A model generated the notes under the pieces. It was not told the DNA's origin. It searched no databases and saw only the letters and a program-made list of their open reading frames with translations. A stretch of 64,000 nt of DNA. Origin: Flaccisagitta enflata. Its lineage: Eukaryota. The position numbers and the translations under genes are program-made. Position 1 is the stretch's first letter, and each line of letters opens with the position of its first letter. Location of the stretch: contig OZ231126.1 of assembly GCA_965153355.1 (NCBI GenBank), positions 47,120,001 to 47,184,000 of the forward strand, read 5' to 3'. Shown in pieces: positions 255 to 60,500 of the stretch.

Positions 255-397
255 CTGTTTTACGCACTCGCCGACATTAAACATGCGGCAAACGCTGTCA
301 GGCCATCCTCGTTTCTCAAGTCTCACTTGATTCTTCTTCACCTTCCTCGCCTGCATTTCTTCAAGAGTAACGAGCGCCTTACGAAGATCTTTGGCGC
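255..397 (-). CDS. Exon 5 of multi-CCCH zinc-finger protein; gene continues beyond the left edge
   Basis: Acceptor tctcgcag at 398-405; (G)AKDLRKALVTLEEMQARK...PDSVCRMFNVGECVKQ parallels exon 3 (GAREFRETL...PKDVCRMFNLGIC). Donor CAG|GTGTGG at 254. Confidence 0.82.
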
Positions 398-414
398 CTG
401 CGAGAATTATTCAA

Positions 415-600
415 AACAAGGCCAACACCTTACAGTCGCGTGCGGTTGTTAAGACCAAAAGACCAAAGATGACTTATAATGACTTTAAACAAATCAAAAT
501 AACTTAAAATGATGTAGAACGACAAAAAGAAGCTAAGCCTTACGGACCGACAGACAGACAGACAGAGTGGGTCATAGAGTCGCGTGCACGCGTCTAAAAA
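415..600 (-). mobile_element. HINE/DINE-like (Helentron-associated) non-autonomous element
   Basis: AACAAGGCC end, subterminal AGTCGCGTGC, GACA/GACC microsatellite, and terminal palindrome AGTCGCGTGCACGCG followed by an A-run. Confidence 0.75.
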
Positions 601-707
601 TCTTCATTAAAATATACAGATTAATGAGACAATCAATGTAGAGCGCGTCACCGCGCGTGTAATCATTTTGTGAGTATGCAGTATGTAGAATATGTAGTAA
701 TGATCAC

Positions 708-801
708 CTTGGCAAGCGCAAATTTTGGCGGCGTTTTTTCCAAGACAAATAGCGCAGTGGTGTCCGACGTCACACTTTTTCTCGCAAGTGCCCAGGTTGA
801 A
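708..801 (-). CDS. Exon 4 of multi-CCCH zinc-finger protein (not in the ORF track)
   Basis: Manual translation after acceptor cattttag gives FNLGTCEKKCDVGHHCAICLGKNAAKICACQ+G, then donor GTGATC. Phase 0 in and phase 1 out match both neighbouring exons and complete the finger CIK-FNLGTC...H. Confidence 0.88.
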
Positions 802-896
802 CTAAAATGAATAATTATAAAAGAAAATGAGCACTGTAATCTGACTATAATTATATATATTTAATTGAAACATGTAATCAGTAGAATTCAAAGCCG

Positions 897-1910
897 GGTG
901 GTTTCATGACAAATCACCCAAACTTAAAACCCTAAAAAAATAGAATTTGCTCTTTTTTAATGTAAAGGTAGCCCTTGGGGAGATATTCAAGAATCCCGAA
1001 GATTTTCGCTCTCGGACCCATATTTTGGGTTTTGGGGGGTTCGAAATTTTGGGCCCCCCAGGTACCCCCAGAACTTTAAATAGCTATATCTCAGCCATTT
1101 TTTATAGTAAAAGGACAATCTTGGTGTCAATCTTCTTGTATTAACCCAAAGAATCTAATAGGAAAAAAATTTGAACCAAATAAAATCATTTTGGGGGTTT
1201 TTACCCCTAGGGGTAGTACCCCGGGGTACCCCAGGGTACCTAGTACGTAGAAATTTTGAAAAAAAAGCTTGGAAAAATATTCTTCTATGTTTGTAGTTTC
1301 ATATTCAAGAATAAAAAAAAATGGTACCTCTGCACCTTGATACCCAAAAAGAATAACAAAATTGGGTGGTCAGGCCCATTTTTCAGTATTTTTGCTTAAA
1401 TCGACGGTTTTTAGGAAAATGCTCAAAAATGGGCCTGACCACCCATTTTTGTTATTTTTTTTGGGTATTAAGGTGCTGAGGTACCATTTTTTTAATTCTT
1501 GAATATAAAACTACAAACATAGAAGAATATTTTTCTAACTTTATTTTTCAAAATTTCTACGTACTAGGTACCCTGGGATACCCCGGGGTACTACCCCTAG
1601 GGGCAATAACCCCCAAAATGATTTTATTTGGTTCAAATTTTTTTCCTATTAGATTCTTTGGGTTAATACAAGAAGATTGACACCAAGATTGTCCTTTTAC
1701 TATAAAAAATGGCTGAGATATGGCTATTTAAAGTTCTGGGGGTACCGGGGGGGCCAAAATTTCAAACCCCCCTAAAACCCAAAATATGGGTCCGAGAGCG
1801 AAAATCTTCGGGATTCTTGAATGTCTCCCCAAGGGCTACCTTTACACCAAAAAAGAGCAAATTCTATTTTTTTAGGGTTTTCAGTTTGGGTGATTTGTCA
1901 TGAAACCACC
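897..1910. mobile_element. Fold-back MITE, ~1 kb, almost entirely palindromic, in intron 3 of the zinc-finger gene
   Basis: GGTGGTTTCATGACAAATCACCC at 897 is inverted at 1888-1910; ~500-bp arms centred near 1404; AAGCC at 891-895 and 1911-1915 is a possible 5-bp TSD. Confidence 0.9.
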
Positions 1911-1999
1911 AAGCCATTCATTTTCAATCCATGTCAGTTGCATAATGCGACTGCGTACTGGTTATCAATTAGCACGTACGCTTTCCATACTCAAATCAC

Positions 2000-2594
2000 C
2001 TTGATACATCCGCCGAGCGGTAAATCCGGCTTTTTGGGTTCTTCCTTCTTCACTCCCGAGGAAAGGGTCTCGCGAAACTCGCGCGCTCCGGCGCAATTGC
2101 AATTCGTGAGATTTACGTCGCTTTTTAGGCATTTGGCGCATTTATGCTGCTGCGCGCATTCGCGGTTCTTGCATATGCCCAAATTAAACATGCGACAGAC
2201 GTCCTTGGGAAGAGGGTCATTCGTCGTTGTCGATTCTGAACGTTCCTCTTTGACAAACTTGACCATAACTCCATGGCCGTTGGCCGTGCTCGTTGTATCC
2301 CCACCACCTTCCGCCTCCTCCGCGGGCTTCGATTTGGGATACCCGCGTTCCACGTCAGAATCTTCCGGAAGCGGTTTGGCGTTACACCGACAATCGGTGT
2401 TTTGCTCTAAGAATGTGGCCTTGCAAGTGGGGCAGTGATGGGTCATGTCGCACGTGTAGCCGCGAGGACAAACGCCATCCGGTTGGGCGAATTCCGGACA
2501 GGGTTGGGCGCCACCAGACTTGGGACTCGCGTTACAACGCAAGCATGTCAAGTAAGGATCGGGACCCCAACAGCTCTTGCAGCGATGTAAATGT
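2000..2594 (-). CDS. Exon 3 of multi-CCCH zinc-finger protein
   Basis: Acceptor ctcttcag|A at 2594 completes ...KSKCR-HLH. Contains CPEFAQPDGVCPRGYTCDMTH and CRMFNLGICKNRECAQQH. Donor AAG|GTGAT at 1999, phase 0. Confidence 0.9.
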
Positions 2595-2827
2595 CTGAAG
2601 AGGAGAAAAAGACAAAGGAGAGGAAACGTTGGAGAAGTTTTGAACACAAATGCAAATTGGTGGATGATATCAACATACTAAAATTGCCTACAATTAATAT
2701 ACTAAATCAATGCACTAAATTAATATACTAAAATTGCTTAAAATTTCTAAGAAGCATTTGAATAGACAAATTAAAGAAAGAAAAGCGTTCAATACATTTT
2801 CTTGCACCGAAACTGGGCGACGCTCAC

Positions 2828-4120
2828 CTGCATTTAGACTTCAACGGACAATAGAATAGACCCCTGTCATTCCATTTCACGCAAATATCCGGAGAAGGGC
2901 TGCGGTTGTTGCGCCACAGTCCTCCCTTTTCTCCTCTTCCTTTCGCCACAGCCTCCATTTCTTTCCAATAAAATCTCTTCTTGAGCCTCATGACCATGCT
3001 TCCGCTGAGCTTGTCCGGCAAGCGTTGTTCGTCGCATTCGCATTTAACAGCTGGTTCAGGTCCGCCGCAATTCTTGCATTCGTGCAGGTAAGTGCAACAT
3101 TCGGCGTCGAATCTGCACGCGGCTTGGTTGAATGCGATACACGGTTTGTCGCTCTTCTCGATGCTGTGACTGTAAGGGCATTCTTCTTCGCTCAACTTGC
3201 AAATGCCACGTCGGAAATTGAAACAAGGCTTGTATTTTTGAGCGCCTTCTTCATTGGCACCATCTTGCATAGCCGTAGTTGGTGCCATGGGTGGCGACCC
3301 CAGTGGCGGGCGCAGAGGAGCGCCGCCTCCCGGAGCCGTGGGATTGATGGAGACCGGCTTAAATCCAGGTGGTGGATTCTGCGGCTGAAAATTGGGTGGT
3401 AATCCTTGCGGAACGGGTCCTCGGCCAGGCTGGAACATGGGCGGGGGCCGCATGGGATCAAAAGCCGGAAGCCCGTGTGGTGGAGGAAGAGACATGGCAT
3501 CGGGGCCAAGGGGTGGTTGCGACCCCGTGGGTAATCCCGCTGGCGTTCCTCCAGGTAATGAACTCATTTTTGGACCGTCGATTTCCGGGGCGCCTGGCTT
3601 CGGCAGAGAAGCCGTTGGAGGGGCCCCGTACTGTGGAGGAGCTTGCGGATGTTGACTGGGTGCGCCTGGCGCGGGGGTTGCGGCGGCGGGATCGGCGGGA
3701 GGATTGCCGGGACCGTGGGAGGCCATATACTCTGCGGATTGGGCAACTTGTCTCACTTGCTCCATTTGAGCCTTGATCATTTGACGCATTTCCCGCAATT
3801 TTTCTTGGGTCAACGACTGTGTCTTCATCCAGTCGTTCATTTCCGTCATCCAGGTTTGCATCTGCTGTTGATACTCTTCCATCTGCCGCCTCATGATGGC
3901 CGTGGCGCCGTCGGATTGCCCAGCGCGCCGCTCTTCTTCCGCCCGCTGCTCGTTGACGCGTTTCTGCACCTGCCAACTCCTCGTCTGATCGTCCAGCCAA
4001 CTCTGCCATTCTACGTCCTCCTCGGTCAATTTGGGGCGTTGAGGGGCGTCGCTTGGATGGGCACCGGCCGAAGCGCTTATGTCGTTGTAATAATCAGCTT
4101 CGTCGTTGATGAAGTAATGC
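2828..4120 (-). CDS. Exon 2 of multi-CCCH zinc-finger protein (Q/E/M-rich helical segment, Pro-rich linker, CCCH fingers 3, 4 and start of 5)
   Basis: Acceptor ctctcacag|G at 4120 and donor AG|GTGAGC at 2827, phase 2 at both ends. Contains CFNFRRGICKLSEEECPYSH and CIAFNQAACRFDAECCTYLH. Confidence 0.92.
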
Positions 4121-16680: not shown

Positions 16681-18659
16681 CTTCGGCGGCATTTTTTGTT
16701 GACATTATCACACGCTCCCACTGCCCATTCACGGCAAAGCTTTTTAGATTCTTTTCTCTCCTCCTCCGCCTGTCTTTCCCGTCTGTACGGGGCATCTGGA
16801 TCAGATTGTTGTTGATGAGGGGAATCAGCGTAAGGGTCGTCGTCGCCGACACGAGGAGGGTGCGCGTGAGAGGAGGACAATCTTTTCTCCGCCTTTCTCG
16901 CGGCACGTTGCTCCGGATCTTCCGCGTGATGGCGTTCTCTTGATCCACGGCGCTGATGACCAGTGGCGGGATCTTTTTCGCGATCCGCGTATTTTTTACG
17001 CCTATGTTTCGATTGAGGACTTTCGGGCAAACTGTGAGCGAGAAGACACCCACCAATTGGCTTTCGACATATCCCCGTATCGAACCACTCCTTACAGATG
17101 CCCTCCGGATAATCCGGGTCATCGTAAGGAGCGGGTTTTTCCATGGACGGTGACCGAGGTCTTTTGACAGCCGGCGGCCCAGGAGGATAATCGGCAGGAC
17201 CTTGAAGATGCGGATGAGGATGATGATGCTTGGAGGAACTACCAGAGGGCTTCTGCTGCGGATGCTGCCTCGAGGGACTCCCACTAGGACTGCGTGGCAT
17301 TCTCCTAGGCGGCTGCTGTTGGACTTGATAGTGCGGCGGGGGACTTCGTCCAGTACCTCGGTCATACTCGGGTCTCATATGATCGGTTGGAGGCATTCTC
17401 TCTCTTGAATCTCGATTGATATTTTCTCTAAACTGCTCCGGTTTTTCTCTAAACTGCTCCGGTAATCGCTGCTCTCTTGGGGAAGGCGATCTTTCTCTCC
17501 TCAAATTATCCAAGTTATGCCCAAACGCTTCGCGTTTGGGAGGTGACGGCGTTCTGTAGGGAGAAGGCGTCAAACGCCTCTGAGGTCGGGCGGCCTGCTG
17601 TGGTGGAGGGGGTGAATAAGGACCCGGGTCACGGTAGGCTTGGGGAGGGGGTGACGACCTCCGAATTGGAGGAGCCTCAAAAGGCGTTGGACTTGGTTGG
17701 CGATGATACGGATCGCCACGATACTGCGGTGGTTCACGGCTCGTCTTCCCACGCTGGGGGGATGTTTCTCTGCCAGGTCTAGGAGGCCATTGCTCTCTCG
17801 GATCAGGAGAGAGACGTCTTGAAGGAGGCGCGTGAGAGGCATGCGGTGGCAGAGGTGAACGATCGCGTTCAAAGCGCGGAGGCGGTGCGCCCCGTGAAGG
17901 AGGATGAGCGTGATCTCGCGCATGGGGATCGGGATAATACGCATCTTTTCCTTGTACAGGCATTGGTTCCCCACCTCTCATCCTTCTTGGGGATGGTGGG
18001 CTTCGTCTTCTTGGATGCATCGGGGGCGAAGGTGAACGACCTCGTCTCCCAGGGTCATAACGATCGTCACGCCTAGGTGCCTGCTGCTGCTGCTGCTGCG
18101 TTCCATAACGCTGTTGATACGGCGCATCAGTCGCCGGGGGCCCGTACAACTCAGTGGGCGAAGGAATGCGCCTTCTCGGTGGAGGCGGGGATGGAGCTCC
18201 TCCAGCTGGACGCGGCCTGGTCCTTGATTCATGCTGAGGAGGAACTCCTTGCCTTTCATGAGATGGAGGATGATATTCATCGTGAGGGCGACGTGGCGCG
18301 GCAGCTGGAGTCGGATAATGGGGATTATCGGGTGACCTTGGACGTCTTGACTTGTGGTCGTAACCCGGCGGCCTTCCGCCTCTTCTTCCATCATCGACCG
18401 CGCCCGTGTGGCGATCGAGATTGGGTTTGACATCTGGGTATTCGCCGTATGGACCACCATTTGGGCTTGGTGGACGCCCGGGAGGACCTCGACCACGGCG
18501 ATTATCGCCCCCACCGTGACTGTAATCGTAGACCACGGGACCTCCAGCTTGATCTCTTTGCGCTGGTCCTGGTGAAGGGGCACGAGGCTCTAAAGGAGGG
18601 GGAGAATATCTCGAAGAATAACCCGGAGGTAACTCCGAGTCTCCTTGGAAGTAAGACAT
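16681..18659 (-). CDS. Exon 1 of multi-CCCH zinc-finger protein (Pro/Arg/Ser-rich low-complexity N-terminus, CCCH finger 1 and most of finger 2)
   Basis: 660-aa ORF starting at ATG 18659; motifs CKEWFDTGICRKPIGGCLLAH and CREWAVGACDNVNKKCRR. Ends at donor AG|GTGAGT (16680), phase 2; splicing to 4120 completes C-x7-C-x6-C-x3-H. Confidence 0.9.
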
Positions 18660-57599: not shown

Positions 57600-60500
57600 A
57601 TGTCGGAAATTTTAATTGGATTGGAATGAGTTGGAACAAACTGGAATGAGTTAGAATAAATTGAAATGGTTTGCAATGACACAAACACTGATTTCAGTAC
57701 AATTGGAATGGGTTGGAATGCATTGGAATGGGTTGCAATGAGATAAAGGTTGATTTTGATAGAAATTTCAGCAGGATTGGAATGGGTTTGGAATGAGTTG
57801 GAATGAAATAACCATTGAAAGCCATTACAACTCATTCCAACCCATTCCAATCCATTCAGGTTGTTAAAATTCAGTCTAAATCCCCTGTTAAACCCCTACC
57901 TCTTAGCCCCTCCCAATCAAGAAACTGAACCATAATTATAACTAAAGAAAATTTTCATTCAGGCTCTACACCTTAGGGTAGAGCCCGAATGACAACCTGA
58001 ATGGACTTGAATGAAATCTTCAAATTGAAGAATTATTGGTCCTTTTGAGTTGAGTTCCTAGAATGGGAGGGGCTAAAAGGTAGGGGTTTATAGGGGGATT
58101 TAGACTCAATTGGAATGAATTGGAATGGATTGGAATGGGTTGGAATGGGTTGAAATAACATAGGGTGATTTTGAAAGAAACATCAACAGGATTTGAATGG
58201 GTTGGAATGAGTTGGAATGAATTGGAATGAATTGGAATGGGTTGGAATGAATTGGAATGGATTGGAATGGGTTGGAATGAATTGGAATAACATAAAGGGT
58301 GATTTTGATAGAAACATCAACAGGATTTGAATGGGTTGGAATGAGTTGGAATGAATTGGAATGAATTGGAGTGGGTTGGAATGAATTGGAATGGGTTGGA
58401 ATGAATTGGAATGGGTTGGAATGAATTGGAATGAGTTTCAATGACATAAGGGGTGATTTTGATGGAAATTTCAGCAGGATTGGAATGGGTTGGAATGAGT
58501 TGGAATGAAATAACCGTTGAAAGCCATTACAACTCATTCCAACCCATTCAGGTTGTTAAAATTGAGTCTAAATCCCCCGTTAAACCCCTACCTCTTAGCC
58601 CCTCCCAATCAAGAAACTGAACCATAATGATAACTAAAGAAAATTTTCATTCAGGCTCTACACCTTAGGGTAGAGCCCGAATGACAACCTGAATGGACTT
58701 GAATGAAATCTTCAAATTGAAGAATTATTGGTCCTTTTGAGTTGAGTTCCTAGAATGGGAGGGGCTAAAAGGTAGGGGTTTATAGGGGGATTTAGACTCA
58801 ATTGGAATGAATTGGAATGGATTGGAATGAATTGGAATGGATTGGAATGAGTTGGAATGAGTTGGAATAACATAGGGTGATTTTGAAAGAAATATCAACA
58901 GGATTTGAATGGGTTGGAATGAGTTGGAATGAATTGGAATGGGTTGGAATGAATTGGAATGGATTGGAATGGGTTGGAATGAATTGGAATGAGTTTCAAT
59001 GACATAAGGGGTGATTTTGATGGAAATTTCAGCAGGATTGGAATGAGTTGGAATGAAAAACCGTTGAAAGCCATTACAACTCATTCCAACCCATTCCAAT
59101 CCATTCAGGTTGTTAAAATTGAGTCTAAATCCCCCGTTAAACCCCTACCTCTTAGCCCCTCCCAATCAAGAAACTGAACCACCAATAATATACTAAAAAA
59201 TTTTCATTCAGGCTCTACACTTAGGGTAGAGCCCGAATGACAACCTGAATGGACTTGAATGAAATCTTCAAATTGAAGAATTGTTGTCCTTTTGAGTTGA
59301 GTTCTTAGAATGGGAGGGGCTAAGGTAGGGTTTAGGATTTAGACTCAATTGGAATGAATTGGAATGAATTGGAATGGATTGGAATGGGTTGGAATGGGAT
59401 GGAATGAATTGGAATAACATAAAGGGTGATTTTGATAGAAACATCAATAGGATTTGAATGGGTTGGAATGAGTTGGAATGAATTGGAATGAATTGGAGTG
59501 GGTTGGAATGAATTGGAATGGGTTGGAATGAATTGGAATGGGTTGGAATGAATTGGAATGAGTTTCAATGACATGAGGGGTGATTTTGATGGAAATTTCA
59601 GCAGGATTGGAATGGGTTGGAATGAGTTGGAATGGAATAACCGTTGAAAGCCATTACAACTCATTCCAACCCATTCCAATCCATTCAGGTTGTTAAAATT
59701 GAGTCTAAATCCCCCGTTAAACCCCTACCTCTTAGCCCCTCCCAATCAAGAAACTGAACCATAATGATAACTAAAGAAAATTTTCATTCAGGCTCTACAC
59801 CTTAGGGTAGAGCCCGAATGACAACCTGAATGGACTTGAATGAAATCTTCAAATTGAAGAATTATTGGTCCTTTTGAGTTGAGTTCCTAGAATGGGAGGG
59901 GCTAAAAGGTAGGGGTTTATAGGGGGATTTAGACTCAATTGGAATGAATTGGAATGAATTGGAATGGATTGGAATGGATTGGAATGGGTTGGAATGGGTT
60001 GTAATGGGTTGGAATGGGTTGGAATGAATTGGAATAACATAAAGGGTGATTTTGATAGAAACATCAACAGGATTTGAATGGGTTGGAATGAATTGGAATG
60101 GGTTGGAATGAATTGGAATGGGTTGGAATGAATTGGAATGGGTTGGAATGAATTGGAATGGGTTGGAATGAATTGGAATGATTTCCAATGACATAAGGGT
60201 GATTTTGATGTCATTTGAAATTCATTACAACTCATTCCAACCCATTCCAATCCATTCAGATTATTAACAGTGAGTCTAAATCCCCCTATAAACCCCTACC
60301 TTTAGCCCCTCCCATTCTAGGAACTCAACTCAAAAGGACCAATAATTCTTCAATTTGAAGATTTCATTCAAGTCCATTCAGGTTGTCATTCGGGCTCTAC
60401 CCTAAGGTGTAGAGCCTGAATGAAAATTTTCTTTAGTTATCACTATGGTTCAGTTTCTTGATTGGGAGGGGCTAAGAGGTAGGGGTTTAACGGGGGATTT

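Follow-up and report, generated by a model that had tools for sequence, protein, structure and literature searches.

A spliced gene of Flaccisagitta enflata encoding nine tandem zinc modules that resemble the ORF1 (Gag) zinc region of Ngaro-type retrotransposons

Structure, expression and conservation of the gene

A stretch of 64,000 nucleotides of the marine animal Flaccisagitta enflata (assembly GCA_965153355.1, contig OZ231126.1, positions 47,120,001 to 47,184,000; hereafter the window) was found to carry, on its minus strand, a large spliced gene whose protein is built around a tandem zinc module, in which a finger of three cysteines and one histidine (CCCH) is followed one residue later by a four-cysteine (C4) unit. 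The gene extends beyond the window edge, and its model comprises nine exons, all with AG/GT ends, totalling 5,814 nucleotides and 1,937 amino acids with a single terminal stop (Table 1). Nine CCCH+C4 modules and three lone CCCH fingers are encoded by the full model, against a mean of 0.0002 modules in 5,000 shuffles of the same Cys-rich region, and the module pattern had no matches in the six frames of window positions 4200-64000. An earlier note, made from the sequence alone, had proposed the five exons that lie within the window, and all of these were upheld. Exons 2 to 5 have AG/GT ends and form one stop-free frame when joined, in which the five modules were found exactly as that note had quoted them, whilst exon 1 has an ATG start, ends in phase 2 and opens a CCCH finger that is completed across the join to position 4120. 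The ‘further finger’ placed by the note at the window edge is module 6; the tandem modules are therefore present as described, but they number nine rather than five or six.

Table 1. Features of the gene. Positions are those of the window unless a piece is named; L002, L003, L004, L005 and L007, here and in the text, are genome pieces beyond the window edge with their own coordinates.
Feature	Position	Strand	Remarks
Exon 1	16681..18659	-	ATG; Pro/Arg-rich disordered region (amino acids 1-520); two lone CCCH fingers, the second completed in exon 2
Lone CCCH finger in exon 1	17096-17034	-	First of two
Second lone CCCH finger of exon 1	starts 16736	-	Finishes in exon 2
Exon 2	2828..4120	-	Gln/Met/Glu-rich probable coiled coil, Pro-rich linker, lone CCCH finger, module 1, first half of module 2
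Probable coiled coil in exon 2	about 4020-3725	-	Judged by eye
Lone CCCH finger, amino acids 959-978	3166..3225	-	Sequence pattern
Module 1, amino acids 987-1022	3034..3141	-	CCCH + CxxC-x8-C-x1-C
Module 2, amino acids 1073-1111	2534..2883	-	Interrupted by intron 2827-2595
Exon 3	2000..2594	-	End of module 2, modules 3 and 4, start of module 5
Module 3	2500-2384	-	In exon 3
Module 4	2197-2093	-	In exon 3
Exon 4	708..801	-	Remainder of module 5 (amino acids 1287-1319); orthologue fragment P0077 reads through both flanking junctions
Exon 5	255..397	-	Linker and first half of module 6
Exons 6-8	L002 9473-9278, 9163-9123, 8711-8239	-	Beyond window edge; modules 6-9 continue across exons 6-9
Exon 9	L004 9986-8987	-	Beyond window edge; Pro-rich tail at protein end

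The modules start at amino acids 987, 1073, 1123, 1224, 1287, 1357, 1436, 1540 and 1586, and the lone CCCH fingers at 522, 642 and 959. All 12 CCCH fingers have spacing of the C-x7-10-C-x4/5-C-x3-H type, with a second spacer of 3-6 residues, and their matches to Pfam zf-CCCH were all below the curated cut-offs and covered the CCCH half only. Amino acids 1-520 are 24% Pro and 15% Arg and contain no Cys, whilst the C-terminal tail after the modules is 32% Pro; the coiled coil of exon 2 drew only weak Pfam coiled-coil matches. The N-terminus had previously been labelled as rich in SR (serine/arginine) dipeptides, a label that had to be withdrawn, as RS and SR occur 9 and 8 times in amino acids 1-520 against 6.7 expected, without enrichment, and it is RxxSP motifs that are enriched instead (16 versus 1.5 expected). 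On these counts, an SR or RS-domain protein was rejected. A relationship to the restrictor subunit ZC3H4/Su(s), which has three adjacent CCCH fingers and a WDR82-binding DPR motif, gained no support, as the DPR motif occurs twice against 1.8 expected; the architecture differs too.

Evidence from RNA was sought by comparing Logan contigs from marine metatranscriptomes with a 6.1-kb stretch holding six of the model junctions. Spliced contigs from two studies agreed with three of the six junctions predicted from the letters: junction 2828/2594 in a contig of run X2, and junctions 2000/801 and 708/397 in both X1 and X2. One X2 contig departs from the stretch precisely at the exon-8 donor, with 81 letters remaining, and none of the joints listed for the 6.1-kb stretch corresponded to the exon 5-6, 6-7 or 7-8 junctions. 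RNA depth was low, at about 2-6 over the exon pieces listed. No exon was supported by runs X3 and X4, and the raw reads of X4 fell almost only on repeats.

Sequence differences were read for 40 of 78 difference rows, 13 of which were exonic; 11 of these 13 differences were silent and two replacing, a small sample that gives a binomial p of about 7e-5 when the neutral silent share is taken as 0.3. Two orthologue fragments were also retrieved among metagenome proteins, namely P0072, which is 75% identical over amino acids 1485-1605 and ends at the exon-8 donor, and P0077, which is 61% identical over amino acids 1201-1368, passes two junctions and departs at the exon-5 donor. Both keep all ligands in the C4 (all-Cys) form. 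Taken with the spliced contigs and the silent excess, these orthologues (61% and 75%) show the expression and purifying selection expected of a domesticated gene. A single metagenome scan for orthologue DNA with P0077 returned one locus, matching only a repeat-derived N-terminal stretch, and a word-based search for exon 8 homologues, which constitutes weak evidence, found none in 94 candidates among longer proteins.

Only self-matches were returned when the gene was searched against its own 794-Mb, nine-contig genome (a lower bound), and the locus is almost certainly a single-copy, spliced and expressed host gene with a real function. An intronless repeated element was rejected in view of the eight introns, three of them seen spliced, and of the lack of other genomic matches. 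Neither is the gene a Ngaro or DIRS element itself, as no reverse transcriptase (RT)/RNase H or tyrosine recombinase open reading frame (ORF) lies in or next to the model, and the last intron's RT ORFs are those of a Bel/Pao element and a long interspersed nuclear element (LINE). Extra exons in the 12.5-kb first intron were considered and rejected, the best candidate (16137-16029) appearing repeat-derived and being one that would break the split finger, though the codon score is weak for small exons and not decisive. A fusion with the upstream valyl-tRNA synthetase exon was also discounted, since the latter, read by eye, has its own downstream small exon and a stop before the ATG at 18659. Six of the eight introns lie inside zinc fingers. 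Introns 5 and 7 match in position and phase within modules 6 and 7, and modules 4-7 have similar linkers; some of the array, at the least, therefore arose by duplication after the gene had acquired introns.

The module and its counterpart in Ngaro-type elements

The one-residue CCCH-x-CxxC link is present in all nine host modules. The earlier note had proposed that a retroelement Gag knuckle had here lost its His and gained a Cys, and both changes were found throughout: the knuckle His is absent in 9/9 host copies and in 3/3 orthologue modules, and a new Cys lies two to three residues after the third Cys of the second site. Element modules have a His at +4 and a Cys at +9 after the CxxC; no host module has the +4 His (0/9), whilst the Cys is at +9 in seven of the nine and at +10 and +11 in the other two, such that the element register is kept. 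An Asn four residues after the first Cys (Asn+4), a position that was not part of the DNA search pattern, occurs in 7/9 host modules, 5/5 element-type loci, 7/13 amphibian modules and 25/28 other His-type modules, versus 3/111 plain CCCH control fingers, which were drawn from matches lacking the H-x-CxxC link and hence are no test of the link itself. A Pro at +5 is found in six of the nine host modules, 11 of 13 amphibian Gag-linked modules and three of 28 other (fungal/algal) His-type modules; in the five element-type loci the search pattern required it, and there it carries no weight.

The link to retroelements proposed in the earlier note was tested by scanning DNA collections for the His-type motif, the matches in the genome scan being a lower bound. 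The full His-type module was present in 5/93 long loci and 4/40 short loci from the DNA-pattern scan, and in none of 13 viral-contig pattern loci. Four of the five long module-bearing loci (L115, L149, L141 and L173) are tyrosine-recombinase retrotransposons, each with an RT ORF, a recombinase-family ORF downstream, and one CCCH-x-CxxC-x3-H-x4-C module just upstream of the RT. Pfam RVT_1 scored over its cut-off in all four, and the recombinase catalytic domain in L115 only, with weaker or SAM-domain matches in the other loci. The module terminates an ORF1 that bears a Gag-like block in L115, L149 and L141, and L115 also has a GDSL/SGNH ORF, a layout that PMC9210276 gives for Ngaro elements. 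The Ngaro Gag patterns C-x7/8-C-x5-C-x3-H and C-x2-C-x3-H-x4-C are given in the supplement of PMC4157794. Eukaryotic Ngaro-type sequence was observed in several bacterial genome bins (L114, L115, L141, L149, L154, L173, L195, L201, L205 and L219), probably as host contamination, and the four element loci evidently come from host animals; L141 and L173 contain large inverted duplications.

When profiles were compared, the host and element-type modules aligned over 36 columns with an HH probability of 97.6, and of 98.2 against all His-type modules. A Ngaro-type ORF1 query searched against the whole genome matched only module 1 of this gene, albeit weakly (E 0.34, 37%). The host module and the Ngaro ORF1 zinc region share the order C-x7/8-C-x4/5-C-x3-H, one residue, CxxC and a Cys nine residues on, together with an aromatic-Asn after the first Cys and a G-x-x-P turn. 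Ngaro ORF1 differs in having a single module, with a His ligand, at its end after the Gag body and before the RT and recombinase, whereas the host protein has nine modules with no His and an added Cys, lacks a Gag body, is interrupted by eight introns and was found in one copy. The element loci and the HH probability thus support the Ngaro part of the likeness to DIRS/Ngaro retroelements proposed in the earlier note, but not the DIRS1-type part. On the strength of these comparisons, the host module is very probably homologous to the C-terminal CCCH+knuckle module of Ngaro-type ORF1 (Gag).

The alternative of convergence, whereby a Cys-rich extension was added independently to an ordinary protein with several CCCH fingers (CPSF4-, MBNL- or ZC3H4-like) and the Ngaro likeness arises from Cys patterns alone, was considered highly improbable. 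Short Cys-rich motifs do inflate profile scores, the Pfam and PDB matches are all to plain CCCH families, and no ZC3H4-like finger trio was recognised by eye among 29 CCCH loci of the genome, making a replaced ZC3H4 possible. However, convergence would not account for Asn+4, frequent here and rare in the plain CCCH controls, nor for a one-residue link and third-ligand register that match the element module; the DPR motif is at chance level, and CPSF4- and MBNL-like loci, which we take L092, L077 and L098 to be from their patterns, exist elsewhere in the genome. CPSF4/Yth1, TIS11d, MBNL and ZC3H4 all have CCCH fingers, with matches limited to the CCCH half of the module, and ZC3H4 is also Arg-rich (PMC13710762). 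Makorins share a second zinc finger right after the CCCH, but theirs is a CH finger (C-x2-C-x15-H-x3-C) followed by a RING, which is absent in the host protein. In agreement with the earlier remark that the architecture fits no named ZC3H family, no Pfam family or solved structure was found to span the whole module in Pfam, PDB and Foldseek searches; the PDB sequence matches cover profile positions about 2-24, corresponding to the CCCH half only.

Origin and proposed function of the array

The host-module profile was searched against 1.84 billion representative proteins, giving 1,694 matches at E<=0.001, and the top 150 were examined. Ten of these have the CCCH-x-CxxC arrangement. Two are the orthologue fragments; the other eight are tandem arrays whose knuckle contains a His, and they come from Pleurodeles, Lithobates, Amoeboaphelidium, Quaeritorhiza, Cymbomonas and three unnamed sources. 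Multiplication of the module is thus not peculiar to this gene, although all eight of these arrays keep the His. The amphibian proteins (Pleurodeles XP_069100344, Lithobates XP_077318310 and isoforms, and Lissotriton P0159) likewise carry the same module in tandem within annotated gene models; among them are genes whose three or four His-type modules remain joined to a Gag-like block or an SGNH-like tail. They differ from the host protein in retaining both the His and these element parts (Pfam did not call SGNH), and may be host genes or element copies. A Gag-like block with one to four His-type modules was seen in salamander proteins P0090, P0159, P0160, P0161, P0162 and P0092/P0154 (Pleurodeles, Lissotriton and Ambystoma), and a frog protein has three modules fused to an SGNH-like tail; the salamander and frog proteins are candidate independent Ngaro domestications. 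The Amoeboaphelidium, Quaeritorhiza and Cymbomonas proteins have three to six modules after a low-complexity region and lack Gag parts; they differ in keeping the His, mostly as x4-H-x4-C without the Pro, and show no likeness to the host protein beyond the modules. P0128, P0140, P0038, P0064, P0094 and P0114 are tandem CCCH-CCHC proteins from aphelids, a chytrid and a green alga, and form an unnamed family.

Other searches added little. The Lithobates module was found in 0/2 longer proteins by a word-based search, which is weak evidence, and there were no matches in phage records, in viral contigs searched with P0161 or in genome contigs searched with P0092. An ESM Atlas search with a two-module piece gave a best score of 0.85, which provides leads only. 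No paper on the tandem module array or the gene was found in a literature search that left most subscription papers out of reach, and the available parts of PMC6681497 and PMC3783388 hold nothing on the module array.

Reuse in the host of a module of retrotransposon origin was judged the best explanation overall, with a probability of roughly 55%. The module would have been taken long ago from a Ngaro-type element and cut loose from its Gag body, its second site would have changed from CCHC to CCCC, and it would then have multiplied inside the host gene. Such a domestication is favoured because the Pro at +5 is common to the host and Gag-linked amphibian modules and infrequent in the fungal/algal ones, and because the amphibian arrays are still attached to element parts. 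Transfer in the direction from element to host is moderately probable, and domestication is likely, though not proven.

A number of observations weigh against this reading. The Gag body is absent, in that a Gag-like block profile recovers five element-type ORFs (E 9e-14 to 2e-3) but has no match in either the model or the window (best E 1.6). No donor was found among 18 own-genome recombinase-element loci, collected with PF00589 (seven matches, six read) and a Ngaro recombinase query (12 matches, 12 read), none of which carries the module; the same was true of 18 hand-picked own-genome pattern matches (among 100 of 190 matches listed; control 98) and of the 29 other CCCH loci of the genome, whilst a P0161 query against the own genome and a further DNA pattern each gave no matches. 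Single modules score 8-34 bits on the element profile, where plain CCCH controls reach a median of 15.5 and a maximum of 29.7, and knuckle-half scores beat shuffled controls (p<0.05) in only four of the nine modules. A second base-stacking aromatic is present in 3/9 host modules versus 5/5 element-type ones. A module tree of 53 rows and 43 columns, in which the amphibian Gag-linked modules were included and the L loci left out, has 31 of 50 inner branches open. The join of exons 1 and 2, outside the stretch compared with RNA, is suggested by phase and the split finger only. Lastly, an aphelid, a chytrid and a green alga have His-type tandem arrays free of Gag parts, so that the module itself may be an ancient host one.

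These Gag-free arrays of early fungi and an alga make an old host origin possible. The module would then be an ancient cellular RNA-binding unit and the gene a diverged member, passed down vertically, of a host family resembling the aphelid, chytrid and Cymbomonas tandem CCCH-CCHC proteins, with Ngaro elements having captured the module or sharing its ancestor. We regard this explanation as doubtful, despite the three to six His-type modules without a Gag block in all six proteins of the unnamed family, in several of which, by eye, the array also follows a low-complexity N-terminus and a probable coiled coil, as here. The high frequency of Asn+4 in fungal/algal-type modules, and the failure to find a donor among the loci and pattern matches read, point the same way. 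Nonetheless, no similarity to these proteins was detected outside the modules (best E 1.2), the Pro at +5 that is common in host and Gag-linked modules is rare in theirs, and the only named animal arrays among the best 150 of the 1,694 matches are amphibian and Gag- or SGNH-linked.

Few co-options of tyrosine-recombinase retrotransposons are known, and LAP2alpha is one of them. According to PMC4495291, the LAP2alpha isoforms of TMPO and ZNF451 are host proteins with a domain from a tyrosine-recombinase retrotransposon ORF1, and they differ from the present case in that the source was a DIRS1-type ORF1, contained in a single large exon, with no zinc module and no multiplication. If a Ngaro-type module was indeed reused here, the gene would be a selected, expressed host example in which one ligand was cleanly exchanged for another (His lost, Cys gained) across all nine copies and in its relatives, and thus a natural experiment on a Gag zinc knuckle that changed both its ligand set and its job. 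The module also offers a 40-residue soluble target for structure determination, and the His-type arrays in amphibians, early fungi and an alga suggest an unnamed module family worth defining.

An AlphaFold2 prediction of one module from a 22-row alignment produced a confident, compact model (predicted local distance difference test, pLDDT, 88), an earlier run on two sequences (pLDDT 46) having been discarded. The CCCH half resembles TIS11d and POS-1 (root-mean-square deviation 1.3-2.0 Å, E 0.4-0.5) and also the CPSF30 and U2AF1 fingers, with E-values that are not significant. No match covered both zinc halves of this 44-residue model, a weak query, for which Foldseek gave 0 hits at E<=0.001 (best rows 22-33 residues) and VIA-align a best Z of 2.4 among 48,161 chains.

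CCCH fingers bind single-stranded RNA via stacking aromatics. The first aromatic, after the first Cys, is kept in 9/9 host modules, and seven of the nine have a net positive charge (mean +2.1, versus +2.6 for element-type modules), modules 1 and 3 being net negative. As the second aromatic is retained in only three modules, and is missing from modules 4-6 for instance, several may not bind RNA in the usual way. Each module is predicted to fold as one compact two-zinc unit, the CCCH half of which would grip single-stranded RNA through the conserved aromatic; the array could then bind with high avidity, whilst the coiled coil and Pro-rich tail may recruit partners. RxxSP motifs can be read as sites for proline-directed kinases, of the sort borne by nuclear RNA-processing factors, and the RxxSP-rich N-terminus may be a phosphorylation-tuned disordered region, as in such factors. 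Judging from its sequence, the protein is probably a multivalent RNA-binding scaffold, and it is best read as working like a multi-CCCH RNA-binding protein equipped with a Ngaro-type module, rather than as an element, a Ngaro ORF1 or an SR protein.

We consider it distinctly unlikely that the array serves chiefly to bind proteins or as a structural scaffold. On this view, a nucleic-acid-binding Gag module would have become an interaction domain when His gave way to Cys and the second aromatic was lost, leaving RNA binding to the lone CCCH fingers or a few of the modules. The scarcity of the second aromatic and the negative charge of modules 1 and 3 would suit such a scaffold, as would the makorin CH finger after CCCH, which is proposed to bind protein in bioRxiv 10.64898/2025.12.01.691648; yet the first aromatic is invariant, most modules are positively charged to nearly the extent of element-type ones, and every protein found to resemble the CCCH half in fold or sequence is an RNA-binding one. 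A more elaborate proposal, and a rather unlikely one, is that the RNA-binding array serves as an all-cysteine, nine-fold reader in a nuclear surveillance factor that commits retroelement-like or unspliced-leader transcripts to termination or decay, and that this RNA-packaging module of Ngaro Gag was also taken up and expanded in separate events in amphibians, early fungi and algae. If true, eukaryotes would have drawn RNA-binding proteins from Ngaro Gag repeatedly without this having been recognised, and these proteins would have a two-zinc fold not described before.

Genomic neighbourhood

A valyl-tRNA synthetase gene (window 19876-19140, minus strand; Pfam Anticodon_1, E 3e-23) ends about 480 bases upstream of the ATG of the zinc-module gene, on the same strand, and a Tim17-family ORF (L004 5941-4790) lies about 3 kb after its stop, also on the same strand. 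The order of valyl-tRNA synthetase, the zinc-module gene and Tim17 is possibly operon-like. Downstream of the gene, a coding-like segment of several kilobases occurs twice in inverted orientation (L004 1-2570, L005 9292-9999 and L007 4538-7963). Elsewhere in the window, a weak EFG_IV match (58109-58555, minus strand, E 0.005) may be an exon of an elongation-factor-like GTPase.

Intron 3 contains an inverted repeat of about 1 kb, a near-perfect palindrome (window 897-1910) with arms 94% alike, which lies outside the protein and has similar copies in RNA contigs; it is probably a foldback element or resembles a miniature inverted-repeat transposable element. The last intron, of about 18 kb, harbours a Bel/Pao long terminal repeat (LTR) retrotransposon in antisense orientation (L002 1-7200 and L003 6540-10000), with long open gag and pol frames and an extra open frame of 695 amino acids between pol and an LTR (L002 4250-6334, plus strand) that has no Pfam match. 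The LTRs are 98.1% alike over 692 bases, indicative of a recent insertion. The LINE in the same intron (L003 5856-2596, minus strand) consists of a single frame of 1,087 amino acids with a PHD finger, an endonuclease and an RT.

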